DNA of 64,000 bases, from NCBI GenBank assembly GCA_045635585.1, contig JAZTWA010000001.1, forward strand, positions 28 through 64,027, written 5' to 3'. This DNA comes from Candidatus Enterousia sp. GTDB taxonomy: Bacteria > Pseudomonadota > Alphaproteobacteria > Rs-D84. The translations under genes and the position numbers were made by a program. Numbering within the stretch: position 1 is the first letter of the stretch; the number at the start of each line of letters is the position of its first letter. Positions 4,196-27,029 of this stretch are shown in pieces. The notes beneath the pieces are model-generated. The model was not told the DNA's origin, searched no databases, and saw nothing but the letters and a program-made list of their open reading frames with translations.

Positions 4196-5284
4196 ATGCT
4201 GACCGAATATTTTTTTGAACATGGATTAACATTTTTTGCCAGTGGTTGGACCCAGTTTGCGGGTGCGTTTTTTGTGGCATTTGCTATTATGCTTTTGTTT
4301 GGACGTCCCTTTATTGCCGCGATGCGTGCATTACAGAAAAAAGGGCAGCCAATCAGTGAAAATGTACCACAATCCCACGTGGTCAAGGCTGGTACGCCAA
4401 CAATGGGTGGTGTTCTGATAATATTTGCCATATTGTGTGGCAGTTTGCTGTTTATGCCATTAAATAATTTATCAGGTTGGTTGGCATTAATGTCGTTGGT
4501 TATGTTTGGCACATTGGGATTTGTTGATGATTATAAAAAAGTTGTGTCTCAATCGAAAAAAGCATCAAATGGTTTATCACCATTGACTCGTCTTGTTGTC
4601 GAAGGTATCTTTGTTGTAATATTGGCATATTTAATTAATCAAACAATGCCGCCGTATATTCCTGAATATTCTTTGGCAATTGGTGCGGGAATTATTTTGC
4701 CTTTGGGCTTTTGGTATTATGTGTTTGCGTATTTTGTCATTTGTGGCAGTGCGAACGCAACAAATATCACAGATGGTTTGGATGGAATGTTGTCTAAATT
4801 GTATTTGCCTGTGTTGGTTGTTTTGGTTGTTGCGCTTTATGGTGCAACCCGTATTGGCTTTATGGATACTGTGATGTTCTTGCCAACGGCCAGTGGTCTG
4901 TATGCGGTACTTGGTGCGGTGTTTGGCGCGGTATTAGGATTTTTGTGGTATAATTCAAAGCCGGCATCAATATTTATGGGTGACGTTGGTTCTTTGGCTT
5001 TGGGTGGTTTTATGGGAACCGTTGCAATGTTATTAAAGTCCGAAATTATTATGGGTATTGCGGCCGGTATGATGGTGTTGATTTTATTATCGTCATTTGC
5101 TCAGACAATGTACTTCAAAATTACGCGTCATCTCACAGGAACTGGTCGTCGCATATTTTTGCGCGCTCCATTACATCATCATTTTGAAGAATTGGGTTGG
5201 ACCGAAACAAAAATTGTTGAAAGATTCTTTATCTTGTCGATATTGTTTTCGGGATTGGCATTGGTTTTATTAAAATTTGCATAA
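4196..5284 (+). CDS. mraY: Phospho-N-acetylmuramoyl-pentapeptide transferase
   Basis: KxGTPTMGG, NATNITDGLDGM, FMGDVGSLALGG and APLHHHFE motifs. Polytopic membrane protein. Confidence 0.95.
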   Translation: MLTEYFFEHGLTFFASGWTQFAGAFFVAFAIMLLFGRPFIAAMRALQKKGQPISENVPQSHVVKAGTPTMGGVLIIFAILCGSLLFMPLNNLSGWLALMSLVMFGTLGFVDDYKKVVSQSKKASNGLSPLTRLVVEGIFVVILAYLINQTMPPYIPEYSLAIGAGIILPLGFWYYVFAYFVICGSANATNITDGLDGMLSKLYLPVLVVLVVALYGATRIGFMDTVMFLPTASGLYAVLGAVFGAVLGFLWYNSKPASIFMGDVGSLALGGFMGTVAMLLKSEIIMGIAAGMMVLILLSSFAQTMYFKITRHLTGTGRRIFLRAPLHHHFEELGWTETKIVERFFILSILFSGLALVLLKFA

Positions 5285-21927: not shown

Positions 21928-21964
21928 GCACGACCAAGCACAGAACTGGCAGTCCCAACGGGAA
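21928..21964 (-). repeat. 37-bp duplicate of the tRNA-Glu 3' end plus its downstream flank
   Basis: GCACGACCAAGCACAGAACTGGCAGTCCCAACGGGAA is identical to 22044..22080. Confidence 0.9.
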
Positions 21965-22043: not shown

Positions 22044-22080
22044 GCACGACCAAGCACAGAACTGGCAGTCCCAACGGGAA
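22044..22080 (-). repeat. 37-bp repeat copy overlapping the intact tRNA-Glu 3' end
   Basis: Identical to 21928..21964. Covers 18 nt of the tRNA and 19 nt of flank. Confidence 0.9.
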
Positions 22081-24484: not shown

Positions 24485-24615
24485 TTTTAATGTTTTTTGT
24501 TTGTTTTATTTTGACCAAAATTATAGCAAAAAAAAGCTTAAAAGTCCAGTTCTGTTGAAAAAAGTAATTTTTAAGGAATAGGCTCTATTGTGCAATTCGT
24601 GATGTATAGCAAAAT

Positions 24616-24680
24616 AAAAATGCCCCATGTGGGCATTGTTTTATTCTGGTTGGGGTGTGCGGGCAAAACGCGAACCGAGT
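24616..24680 (-). repeat. Duplicate of the tRNA-Gln 3' end plus terminator hairpin (40 bp perfect, then a decayed tRNA remnant)
   Basis: 24616..24655 AAAAATGCCCCATGTGGGCATTGTTTTATTCTGGTTGGGG is identical to 26264..26303. The next ~25 nt still resemble the tRNA (..GCGG..CGAACC..). Confidence 0.9.
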
Positions 24681-24681
24681 T

Positions 24682-26007
24682 TTACATGTCTTTTCCAGTT
24701 GTTTGTCGTTGTAAAACCATTTCGTTTTGTAAGTATTGTATAATCCCTTGTGGTTGAATAATTTTGTTGTCGCCAGTCTGACCGTTTGATACAGCGGTTT
24801 GTTGTGCAATTTCAAAAAAATGATGCGGTGTCAGATTTGGCGCAACCTGTTTTGCTAATGCATAAACCCCAACTAAATACGGTGTTGACCACGACATGCC
24901 AGAATTTGCTCCGCAATATATATAATCGTCGTTACTTTGGTTTCCGGCGATTGTTCGGCCGCCAGCAGGAACTAACAGGTGTTCGTGCAAATTGTCTTTA
25001 TTTTTCTTCCAAAATCCCACTTCATAAGATTGTATGTCGTCGGGGTTAGAATTCATTTTTCTATCTATTGTTATGAAATTTGCCTTGTCTCCATAAAAAC
25101 GTTCTGAGTCCGTTGTTAAAACCATAACACCGCTGTCAATTAATTGTTTTATTAGTTTCGTGCTTTCTGGGTCTGTACCTAGCATTCCCCAGCTAATTGA
25201 TACGGCAGATATTTTTTTGTCTTGCGGTAATCTGGCGTTCATAAACAAGATTTTACGTAATGCTTTGGCACGATGCGTAAAGTATATTTCTGTTTTTACG
25301 GAAAAAGCCTGTTCTTTTATATCTGGTGGTAAATTTGCAATAATTTGGTTTATTTTATGGCTAAATTCTTCGTCTATTTGATGTCTGTTATTAAGTATGT
25401 CCTTTATTGTTTCATCAAAATCCATATCTTTCGGAAAATATTGTCGCAATACTTTTTGAAAATTCTCATCGGCAAGTGTTCTTTTTATTTTTGTTGCGTT
25501 TGCTGCGAAATAAACAATTTTTGCATCTGGTGCAACGCCAACAGTTTTACCTGCTAATAAACTTGATACTGCCGTCCCATGAATTTGTGCTTCTAGATGT
25601 TCAGGATATCCATTTGATTCATAGTGAATTATGTTGTCTTTTATTTCGCTGTGTTCTGTATTTAATGGCTGGTCTATAATCGCAACGGTTATACCTTTTC
25701 CTGTAATTCCCATTGCATGCAAGTCGCCGATACTTAGTCCCGGGACTTTGCCGTTTTCTAAAACCTGTTCTGGATTAAATCCATCTGGCATTTTATCGAT
25801 AGTTGGAAATTTTGTTTTGCTGTTAAATCTTATGTATGGTAGCTTTTCACCAGCATTGGAAAAGTCAACTTCAGATGCATCGCCATATAAAACAAAAGAT
25901 TGTGAATCTAATTTTGTATCGGTATCAAATTCTGGAATCCGAATGTCGTTTATTGCAATCGGTTTTGCGCCCTTGTTTTTCTTAAATACTGTCAGAAAAT
26001 CCTGCAT
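24682..26007 (-). CDS. Subtilisin-like (S8) serine protease, no signal peptide
   Basis: Catalytic triad contexts ITVAIIDQP (Asp), HGTAVSSLLAG (His) and GMSWSTPYLVGVYAL (Ser). Confidence 0.8.
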   Translation of the reverse strand: MQDFLTVFKKNKGAKPIAINDIRIPEFDTDTKLDSQSFVLYGDASEVDFSNAGEKLPYIRFNSKTKFPTIDKMPDGFNPEQVLENGKVPGLSIGDLHAMGITGKGITVAIIDQPLNTEHSEIKDNIIHYESNGYPEHLEAQIHGTAVSSLLAGKTVGVAPDAKIVYFAANATKIKRTLADENFQKVLRQYFPKDMDFDETIKDILNNRHQIDEEFSHKINQIIANLPPDIKEQAFSVKTEIYFTHRAKALRKILFMNARLPQDKKISAVSISWGMLGTDPESTKLIKQLIDSGVMVLTTDSERFYGDKANFITIDRKMNSNPDDIQSYEVGFWKKNKDNLHEHLLVPAGGRTIAGNQSNDDYIYCGANSGMSWSTPYLVGVYALAKQVAPNLTPHHFFEIAQQTAVSNGQTGDNKIIQPQGIIQYLQNEMVLQRQTTGKDM

Positions 26008-26263
26008 AATGCAACCTCCGCGTATGTTGGTTTATAATTATACCATATATATAGTTCTTGCTGAATGAAAATCAATGCGTTATGCTGGCCGACCACAACC
26101 ATTTTGAATAAAAAGACCAGTTAGAGCAGTTTTTTATTAGTTTTACAATATTATTGCTGGTTCGAATGTTTTTAGTGATTTATTGTTAGTTCGAAAGTGT
26201 TGATAATAACATAATTTTTCTAATTTTAACTTTCGAACTCGTCAAACACTTGTGTTTCAAACA

Positions 26264-26303
26264 AAAAATGCCCCATGTGGGCATTGTTTTATTCTGGTTG
26301 GGG
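26264..26303 (-). repeat. 40-bp repeat copy: terminator hairpin plus the 3' end of the intact tRNA-Gln
   Basis: Identical to 24616..24655. The hairpin AATGCCC-CATGT-GGGCATT is followed by a T-run on the minus strand. Confidence 0.9.
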
Positions 26304-26368
26304 CGCACGGATTCGAACCATGATAAAGAGAACCAAAATCTCTTGTCCTACCATTAGACGACACCCCA
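26295..26368 (-). tRNA. tRNA-Gln (anticodon TTG), CCA encoded
   Basis: Reverse strand TGGGGTGTCGTCTAATGGTAGGACAAGAGATTTTGGTTCTCTTTATCATGGTTCGAATCCGTGCGCCCCAACCA. It folds as a cloverleaf and resembles the E. coli tRNA-Gln pattern. Confidence 0.88.
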
Positions 26369-26417: not shown

Positions 26418-27029
26418 TTATCTGCTTCGCATTTTATATTGTGTCTGATTATTTATTTTGTCTTGGGTTTTATCAAATTCAATTTGGGCGCGCGTGCGAA
26501 TATTGTGTTGAATCAAGAATTCTTCTTGGCTCAATATATATTTTTGTTGGCCGGCTGAATCCAGTGATGCGATTTCGCGTCCGCGCATTGTTGAAAAGAA
26601 ATCCGGTTTATATCCGTATTCCCATGACAGACGAATTCTGTCGCCGTCCCACAGACATGCGGAAACGCCATTTGGTGCGTTTTGTCCAATTGTGTGTTTG
26701 GCGACGGCATCCAATATTTGTTCGGTGTCTGACTTTGATAATTGTGGATAGTGCATTGATAAAAATTTTTGACCAACTGGAACGGCGTCTGGTCCGTGAT
26801 TTACACACCATGCGTCATTTGTTCTGGCGCAATCGTGCAGTGCTGCCGCCAATATTGCGGGTAATGGATCTTGGTTTATGTGTTGTGCAATATCAATTGC
26901 AAACATTGCAACCTGAATAGTATGTGATAGGCCATGATAACCATATCGAGACTGGTTGGTTACGTATTCGATTTTTGGTAAGATGTCATCAAAGAATAGT
27001 TTTGTGTATTTTATTCGAATGTTTGACAT
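26418..27029 (-). CDS. HD-domain phosphohydrolase family protein
   Basis: GLSHTIQV...AAALHDCAR gives the H...HD signature. Confidence 0.65.
   Translation of the reverse strand: MSNIRIKYTKLFFDDILPKIEYVTNQSRYGYHGLSHTIQVAMFAIDIAQHINQDPLPAILAAALHDCARTNDAWCVNHGPDAVPVGQKFLSMHYPQLSKSDTEQILDAVAKHTIGQNAPNGVSACLWDGDRIRLSWEYGYKPDFFSTMRGREIASLDSAGQQKYILSQEEFLIQHNIRTRAQIEFDKTQDKINNQTQYKMRSR

Follow-up and report, generated by a model that had tools for sequence, protein, structure and literature searches.

The tRNA-Gln(UUG) gene in a 64,000-nt stretch of Candidatus Enterousia sp. DNA (assembly GCA_045635585.1, contig JAZTWA010000001.1, positions 28 to 64,027; hereafter the window) is followed at some distance by a second copy of its own 3′ end, with one gene for a subtilisin-like protease in between. 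We conclude that the interval 24647-26303 is probably an integrative cassette that carries one gene, is non-autonomous and has inserted at this tRNA 3′ end; a large serine recombinase (LSR) would act on it in trans. The cassette appears to belong to a family that is spread through the Candidatus Enterousia-like genus with variable cargo and forms arrays behind tRNA-Gln, and the autonomous relatives of this family are, as far as their gene content indicates, LSR-encoding islands. An att-flanked single-gene cassette had already been proposed in an earlier, sequence-only reading of the window, and the proposal is now supported by the same unit with other cargo, by arrays of such units and by the same cassette in three other contexts.

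The material throughout consists of metagenome-assembled genomes (MAGs). The source genome (G000), that of a gut bacterium with Candidatus Enterousia and uncultured Alphaproteobacteria as its named relatives, was searched as 28 contigs (C numbers) totalling 927,910 bp, with an estimated completeness of 92%. The tRNA-Gln locus was retrieved from 40 genomes of the genus, of which 34 could be oriented and, together with locus L013, make up the 35 relatives compared here. An inverted-repeat pattern was searched for in 101 genus genomes, and LSR homologues in 61 genomes (E ≤ 1e-20). L and G numbers denote loci and genomes of relatives, and metagenome contigs.

A repeated tRNA 3′ end brackets one gene

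The 40-mer AAAAATGCCCCATGTGGGCATTGTTTTATTCTGGTTGGGG is present as two exact copies in the window, at the positions given by the sequence-only reading (Table 1). In the orientation of the tRNA it is made up of the final 9 nt of that gene (CCCCAACCA), then GAATAAAAC, a hairpin with a 7-bp stem (AATGCCCACATGGGGCATT) and a T-run; ARAGORN and Rfam place the intact tRNA-Gln at 26295/26298-26368, so the overlap described earlier holds. The 31 nt on the 3′ side of the 9-mer, a terminator-like hairpin and T-run, were scored as a terminator at both copies, and this duplicated terminator is predicted to close both the tRNA transcript and the protease transcript. Similarity between the copies reaches 46 nt with two mismatches (95.7%) and, more loosely, 60 nt. 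Besides two tRNAs, the Rfam scan returned no RNA family.

It is extremely improbable that the repeat is a dispersed terminator, arose by chance or in assembly, or is what remains of a second, tandem tRNA-Gln gene. Similar-shaped hairpins do follow many tRNAs, but the window holds only the two matches even when up to three mismatches are allowed (expected 0 in 100 shuffles), and no further copy of the 40-mer or of its 13-17-nt sub-pieces occurs across the 28 contigs, which disposes of the dispersed terminator that the earlier reading had named as its own refutation. The repeat is also below the usual assembly k-mer length. The sequence upstream of the distal copy contradicts a second tRNA gene: elements at four different tRNAs share it as a conserved module, whose fixed spacing exceeds that of the tRNA by 5 nt.

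The only long open reading frame (ORF) between the copies encodes the 441-aa subtilisin-like protease noticed earlier. It matches Pfam Peptidase_S8 (PF00082) at 47.7 bits (cut-off 21.8) over residues 103-169 only. The contexts of the catalytic Asp, His and Ser, all reported before, are IIDQP, HGTAVSS and GMSWSTP, and they align to two intracellular subtilisins, 7y6m and 7xr8. No N-terminal hydrophobic signal is present in the protease sequence, again as first read. We predict an ordinary-looking subtilase of intracellular type, with hundreds of relatives, mainly in alphaproteobacterial MAGs. Membership of a defence system was considered and dropped, PADLOC giving only a weak generic subtilase match (E = 9e-6).

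Table 1. Features of the cassette and its borders in the window
Feature	Position	Strand	Remarks
tRNA-Gln(UUG), intact, CCA encoded	26295..26368 (26298 start in one of the two calls)	minus	ARAGORN; Rfam tRNA, 57.7 bits
tRNA-proximal 40-nt copy	26264..26303	minus	9-mer CCCCAACCA at 26295-26303; hairpin 26267-26285; T-run
Inverted repeat GTTCGAAAGT-N30-ACTTTCGAAC, 50 bp	26189..26238	n/a	arms genus-invariant, spacer variable; arms also present within the C-terminal coding part of the LSR genes
Third GGTTCGAATG motif, within the shared left module	26159..26168	n/a	also in L074, L089, L090
Inverted copy of the common right-end module and 9-mer, GCGTTATGCTGGCCGACCACAACCA	26077..26101	plus	~70 nt upstream of the start codon
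Extended -10 promoter element TGGTATAAT	26037..26045	minus	read from sequence; within the ~230-nt left module
Ribosome-binding site GGAGG	26015-26019	minus	read from sequence; 5′ of the protease gene
S8 subtilisin-like protease gene, 441 aa	24682..26007	minus	single long ORF between the 40-nt copies
Right-end module	24656..24681	minus	GTTCG at 24675-24671, then 15 nt to the 9-mer; putative attP-type half-site
Distal 40-nt copy	24616..24655	minus	9-mer at 24647-24655; hairpin 24619-24637
Flank ATTTTGCTATACATCACGAATTGCAC past the distal copy	24585..24615	minus	homologous to the start of a ~170-nt tRNA-Gln-linked short element (L089, L030, L032, L026)

The same cassette elsewhere, and other cargo in the same frame

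At tRNA-Gln(UUG) of relatives the unit runs, in the tRNA sense, CCCCAACCA, terminator, TGTTTGrrAyACAAG..GAGTTCGAAAGT-N30-CACTTTCGAAC, promoter, one gene, (A/G)GTTCGCG..., CCCCAACCA, terminator. The gene carried differs, encoding 312 aa in L046, 366 aa in L031, 216 aa in L029 and 134 aa in L039, and the ~230-nt left module, which includes the promoter, is 84-85% identical to that of the window in L046 and L031 despite their other ORFs. Units are arrayed in L051, L075 and L076; L075 has three in succession, each closing with the right module and CA-CAACCA. The source genome itself holds a second cassette of the family, behind tRNA-Gln(CUG), with cargo 90% identical at the nucleotide level to the unit at tRNA-Gln(UUG) of genome G004 (core genes, 71-76%).

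The protease cassette recurs as well. Metagenome contig L073 matches window 26174..24647 at 96.5% nucleotide identity, and past the cassette continues with a different terminator, a short non-coding element and a GIY-YIG gene unit; contig L074 matches 26257..24647 at 92% and has GIY-YIG units on both flanks. In both contigs the nucleotide homology goes no further than 24647, where the 9-mer has its 3′ end. L090 contains a complete unit within an array at tRNA-Gln(UUG), which keeps the modules, including GTTCG-N18-CAACCA; before the start codon, about 90% of the positions over ~150 nt are identical there (by eye), as against 69% of the amino acids of the protease. In L089 (protease 79% identical in amino acids) a short element precedes the cassette on the tRNA side, and its terminator and flank are the same as the sequence after the distal 9-mer of the window; the order of the two units is therefore swapped between the source genome and L089. 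Occurrence of the cassette in such differing contexts argues for movement.

Exchange of cargo between strains by homologous recombination in the conserved flanks, with no site-specific step and with the 40-nt duplication as a by-product, is very improbable. It would suit the left module common to cassettes with unrelated cargo, the terminator that varies beside the same cassette, and a version of the protease behind tRNA-Thr (described below) whose homology is limited to the ORF, but the same cassette is found behind Gln(CUG) and Gln(UUG), whose tRNA bodies differ, the tRNA 6-9-mer stands at every array boundary, and the constant 5-bp offset and 25-bp geometry set out in the next section would not be expected.

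Among the 35 relatives tRNA-Gln and tRNA-Glu(CUC) are 191 to 9483 nt apart, in both orientations, and we therefore regard the tRNA-Gln locus as a hot spot. The sequence of tRNA-Gln(UUG) is 100% identical in most genus genomes, and no truly empty tRNA-Gln(UUG) site was found among the 35 relatives. The AATGCCC terminator with its ATTTTGCTATAC flank was considered as native empty-site sequence and rejected, since L089 shows the flank to be the start of a short element that can be tRNA-proximal. Because of its homology to the start of this element in relatives, we take the flank at 24585..24615 to be a truncated older insert.

On its 5′ side the tRNA gene is directly preceded by a 203-aa HD-domain gene (window 26418-27029), which is present at this place in L032, L089 and L046 and absent in L013; the 5′ side is thus variable too. 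The GIY-YIG unit, encoding an 81-aa nuclease-like protein and starting CACTTCGCGTCTGCGACGC..., replaces the terminator between the tRNA 9-mer and the inverted repeat (L026 +4690..5010, L045, L031, L074, L075:1024-1269). Contig L073 opens (1-20) with AATCCGTGCGC fused to AATTTTTTCAGTTCGAAAGT, that is, the tRNA-Gln T-arm minus its last 8 nt and terminator; the strain may have a truncated tRNA, or the assembly end may have produced an artefact.

Junction geometry and the link to large serine recombinases

About 25 nt beside the distal copy had been taken for a decayed tRNA body. They are instead a conserved GTTCG-N18-CAACCA module of cassettes and LSR islands: GTTCG-N18-C(A/G)ACCA is present at 6 LSR-island-type junctions (five genomes) and at 13 of 16 cassette right ends. 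The tRNAs themselves read GTTCG-N13-CAACCA, an offset of 5 bp from the element right ends. In serine integrases the attP half-site measures 25 bp, and its zinc-ribbon-domain motif is shifted inward, towards the crossover, by 5 bp in attB (PMC3783163). The offset seen here matches this arrangement, and the most fitting reading of the supposed tRNA remnant is therefore a P-type half-site in imitation of the T-arm. The geometry of the cassette thus appears to be that of serine-integrase sites. Identity between element end and tRNA goes down to the 6 nt of CAACCA in relatives, a length compatible with an LSR crossover of 2 bp, and is 9 nt here.

The T-arm-like fragments noticed earlier at 26157..26238 are real as GTTCGAA-type sequences, but they are arms of the 50-bp inverted repeat and not pieces of a tRNA. 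The pattern GTTCGAAAGT-N(26-34)-ACTTTCGAAC was found in 40 of the 101 genomes, with one to four copies in each and a spacer that is always 29-30 nt long; the reversed control pattern gave 0 matches in the same 101 genomes. The 10-nt arms are invariant and the spacer sequence varies, a geometry that would be that of a symmetric attP. Two accounts of this repeat were rejected. It is not a by-product of LSR coding sequence, as its arms are invariant in non-coding cassettes with diverged spacer; nor is it the attP used at the tRNA, being intact in integrated elements and having a right arm unlike the right half of attL.

In the source genome the 11-mer AGTTCGAAAGT has five copies, all 57-122 nt behind tRNA-Gln(UUG), tRNA-Gln(CUG) or tRNA-Pro(GGG). 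At tRNA-Pro(GGG) lies an intact LSR ORF of 494 aa (C11:45837-47321) with Resolvase, Recombinase and Zn_ribbon_recom domains, and the inverted pair is located within the last ~50 codons of this gene. An LSR homologue was found in 15 of the 61 genomes, and its 3′ end abuts a full-length tRNA 3′ end at 12 of the 15 loci and a tRNA-Asn 3′ fragment at a thirteenth (L070). The adjoining tRNAs are Pro, Gln, Met, Asn, His and Arg, each time with an inverted repeat of 10+30+10 geometry. A 99% identical LSR is present at tRNA-Pro(UGG) of another genome, and the LSR at tRNA-Gln in L059 is 62% identical to that of the source genome. In some clades the arms of the inverted repeat track the T-loop of the target, most clearly as GTTCAAA for tRNA-Met, a correspondence that is suggestive and not uniform.

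The LSR genes are convergent to the tRNA gene and overlap its 3′ end, and the stop codon of the source-genome LSR falls within tRNA-Pro(GGG). Such LSR ORFs ending in an opposite-strand tRNA gene (G000 C11:45837-45848; L058-L069) imply that integration sets the stop codon, and the excised form would therefore encode another C-terminus.

Cassette and LSR islands have the 9-mer, the right-end module and the inverted-repeat arms in common, and the autonomous elements with these modules all carry an LSR. Insertion of the cassette by a tyrosine integrase is therefore improbable. The candidates, ~600-aa proteins with DUF6538 and Phage_integrase domains at tRNA-Pro(UGG) and tRNA-Leu, do lie directly behind tRNAs in ~11-kb islands with 19-25-nt tRNA repeats, an identity of 6-9 nt would also suit a tyrosine-recombinase overlap region, and the protease ORF is found in tRNA-Thr islands with a tyrosine integrase. 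Against this, the former islands and the short elements use 14-25-nt repeats that begin in or just before the T-loop, and have other end sequences, with a GGGAAT right end, and no tyrosine-integrase island with the inverted repeat or a GTTCG-N18 right end was found. Classical tyrosine-integrase tRNA islands have the integrase beside the tRNA and repeat some 15-25 nt or more of the tRNA 3′ part, from the anticodon or T-loop onward; the cassette differs from them in having no integrase and in its tRNA identity of only 9 nt (6 in relatives).

LSR catalysis and the crossover position are inferred here, and the cassette may still be able to move. In the proposed mechanism, an LSR supplied in trans would join a circular form of the cassette to tRNA-Gln, with the crossover within CAACCA, the last 6 nt of the tRNA. 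The tRNA T-arm and the 3′ strand of the acceptor (GTTCG-N13-CAACCA) would serve as an attB-type left half-site and the T-arm-like right-end module (GTTCG-N18-CAACCA) as an attP-type half-site. New units would enter beside the tRNA and displace older ones outward.

We note in addition an inverted copy of the right end upstream of the cassette promoter (26077..26101), which matches the inverted right ends of L073 at 25 of 25 positions and of L074 at 24 of 25. An inverted repeat of ~24 nt thereby brackets promoter and ORF, perfectly in L073 and nearly so in L074 and L090; in the window its right side is degraded.

Points against the cassette reading, and a possible fossil insertion

Several observations weigh against an LSR-mobilised cassette. 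The 40-nt identity is not predicted by the LSR model, since 2 identical bases suffice for crossover by a serine recombinase; that model would have to be supplemented by gene conversion or by a breakpoint lying past the terminator. No recombinase gene lies within the cassette, where the protease is the single ORF, and LSRs occur only in larger relatives (C11 of the source genome, L057-L069); 16 of 21 genomes with non-LSR inverted repeats lack an LSR homologue among the 61 searched, whose assemblies are incomplete. We saw no clear P′-type motif to the right of the tRNA junction. The protease occupies this locus in four species (L013, L089, L090 and the window) at 69-82% amino acid identity, two of the four without the right end, a distribution that fits long residence as well as movement. 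Finally, a bare protease ORF, with homology confined to 26009..24679 (91% nucleotide identity) and a different promoter motif, occurs in a tyrosine-integrase-linked family behind tRNA-Thr, and the ORF is therefore able to move without the cassette ends.

Some of these points are shared by a second explanation, in which an old insertion by any enzyme has become an immobile, vertically inherited fossil, and gene conversion keeps or creates the 40-nt identity of terminators 1.6 kb apart. We consider this rather unlikely. Long residence would account for the protease at one locus in four species, for the missing right end in L013 and L089 and for the absence of an LSR from most cassette-bearing genomes, and the proximal terminator at the window tRNA-Gln is of the type borne by the short element of relatives, not the usual cassette type. 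However, an immobile fossil sits poorly with a cassette found at 92-97% nucleotide identity in different junction contexts, with the swapped order in L089, with non-coding end modules better conserved than the protein in L090, and with an intact LSR in the source genome whose inverted-repeat arms are identical. The earlier reading had held that relatives with the protease at this locus and no repeat would speak against a cassette. L013 and L089 do lack a tRNA fragment after the protease, but their right ends, without the 9-mer, look decayed and tRNA fragments remain upstream. An LSR-mobilised cassette remains the reading we prefer.

Identity through the whole terminator extends over 40 nt at tRNA-Gln and 37-70 nt at four other tRNAs of the source genome. 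These five closely spaced tRNA-end repeats (Glu, Gln, Cys and two Lys) are perfect through the terminator, which in relatives usually differs between copies. It is possible that the perfect terminator repeats arose by gene conversion, or by repeated integration of the same unit followed by truncation.

Other tRNA-linked elements

Among 45 tRNA genes scanned in the source genome, nine have a perfect downstream direct repeat of their 3′ end, and tRNA-Gln(UUG) has one of 95.7% over 46 nt. At short spacing (116-195 nt) such repeats follow Glu(CUC), with copies at window 21928-21964 and 22044-22080, Cys, Lys(CUU) and Lys(UUU), and comprise 17-19 nt of tRNA and 19-51 nt downstream. At island spacing (10-12 kb) they follow Pro(UGG), Pro(GGG) and Leu(UAA); the Pro(UGG) and Leu(UAA) islands open with the DUF6538 and Phage_integrase proteins, and the Pro(GGG) island with the LSR.

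The short elements are non-coding inserts of ~80-130 nt behind tRNA-Glu, Cys, Lys (twice) and Pro, flanked by 14-20 nt of tRNA 3′ end, beginning in or just before the T-loop, plus a terminator. Further sites in the source genome are C5:89996-90241, C12:106851-107115, C28:134-367, C6:139-351 and C11:55892-56082. Their bodies are homologous at both tRNA-Lys genes and tRNA-Glu(UUC), with the right end ..CATGGGAAT.., and 10 of the 35 relatives have a conserved, related body at tRNA-Gln, in a ~125-nt short element with a 14-nt tRNA fragment after it. Tyrosine-integrase elements reduced to a minimum are a possible origin of these inserts.

Elements of the family behind tRNA-Thr are linked to a tyrosine integrase, and each of their genes is preceded by the motif AAACTGTGATGCAAAGTGTGATGC..TGTGGTATAAT. 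The family is represented by L087:3400-5990, L011, L012, L085 and, in the source genome, C25:930-1100 and 2180-2210, contig C25 having a degenerate tRNA-Thr junction of this family. In L087 an S41 peptidase gene follows the protease after 7 nt. The two tRNA-Thr terminator copies of L011 (5776-5795 and 8130-8149) differ in that the hairpin loop and inner stem of one are exactly inverted in the other (GCACCAAACGGTGC versus GCACCGTTTGGTGC), and the flanks of this locus are themselves mobile genes.

Comparison with known systems

Little gene flux is expected of bacteria whose genomes measure only 0.9 Mb. In this case a tRNA gene would be the docking site for the addition, stacking and interspecies swapping of single accessory genes. 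If the LSR indeed reads the near-universal T-arm and acceptor end as attB, this would account for the spread of a single enzyme family to at least eight different tRNA genes, and such integrases would have a natural landing site in most bacteria. The protease has been captured repeatedly, by two unrelated families of elements, which suggests a benefit for host or elements.

The closest described systems appear to be tycheposons, serine-integrase prophage sites, staphylococcal cassette chromosome (SCC) and pseudo-SCC arrays and cis-mobilizable elements (CIMEs), together with integron cassettes in layout only. Like the tycheposons of Prochlorococcus, the cassettes are cargo elements targeting tRNA genes of a streamlined genome, with degenerate remnants; in tycheposons, as we propose for the cassettes, successive integrations displace older elements distally and leave partial tRNAs between units (bioRxiv 10.1101/2020.12.28.424599). 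Tycheposons bear integrases and often carry replication genes, and 910 of 937 have a tyrosine recombinase, a minority an LSR (bioRxiv 10.1101/2020.12.28.424599). The cassettes, compared by architecture alone, are one-gene inserts without a recombinase or a replication module, and have a junction identity of 6-9 nt, a T-arm-mimicking half-site and the 50-bp inverted repeat.

The sites also resemble those of the LI integrase of the Listeria phage A118 family, with a 25-bp attP-type half-site, an outer motif 5 bp closer in the attB-type one, a very short crossover identity and a recombinase of Resolvase, Recombinase and zinc-ribbon domains (PMC3783163). They differ in that the target is a tRNA T-arm and acceptor 3′ end and the right halves are not clearly symmetric, in the extra attP-like inverted repeat that each Enterousia element bears 60-300 bp inside its tRNA-proximal end, and in the non-autonomous cassettes that outnumber the recombinase genes. 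To our knowledge a 50-bp inverted repeat in every unit has no counterpart among described serine-integrase systems.

In staphylococcal SCC and pseudo-SCC elements, Ccr LSRs insert at the 3′ end of rlmH and leave the gene intact, with direct repeats, tandem arrays and recombinase-less units that use Ccr in trans. Insertion at a 3′ end, direct repeats at the boundaries, tandem arrays and units without a recombinase are found here too, with a role for an LSR that we infer; the target is a tRNA and not a protein gene, the units are 1-2 kb with one gene, lineage and site sequences are other ones, and our system is known from sequence alone. CIMEs, defined for tyrosine-integrase integrative and conjugative elements, are flanked by the att sites of the autonomous element, lack recombination genes and come about, or are kept, through tandem accretion with autonomous elements. 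The cassette would be a non-autonomous att-flanked element of the CIME or pseudo-SCC type, as it has the junctions of an autonomous element and no recombination genes; unlike in CIMEs, an LSR island would act as helper, and a conserved left module with a promoter is present in the cassettes.

Integron cassettes are single-ORF units arrayed at a fixed platform, with an imperfect palindromic element and highly variable cargo. The layout of our cassettes is the same in these respects. The tyrosine recombinase IntI, attI and attC have no equivalent here, the PF00589 matches of the genome lie elsewhere, and the arm GTTCGAAAGT does not fit GTTRRRY, the pattern of the R/L boxes in attC; in their place are a promoter in each unit, a tRNA as platform and the geometry of serine-integrase sites. 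It is possible, and we put it forward tentatively, that Enterousia-like bacteria have an integron-like cassette platform that is LSR-driven and tRNA-anchored, in which one-gene cassettes, each with a promoter leader, a T-arm-mimicking half-site and an inverted repeat of symmetric attP geometry, would be taken up, stacked and rearranged at tRNA-Gln and tRNA-Pro, with this repeat acting as a second site of recombinase binding or recombination that allows exchange without a classical attP.

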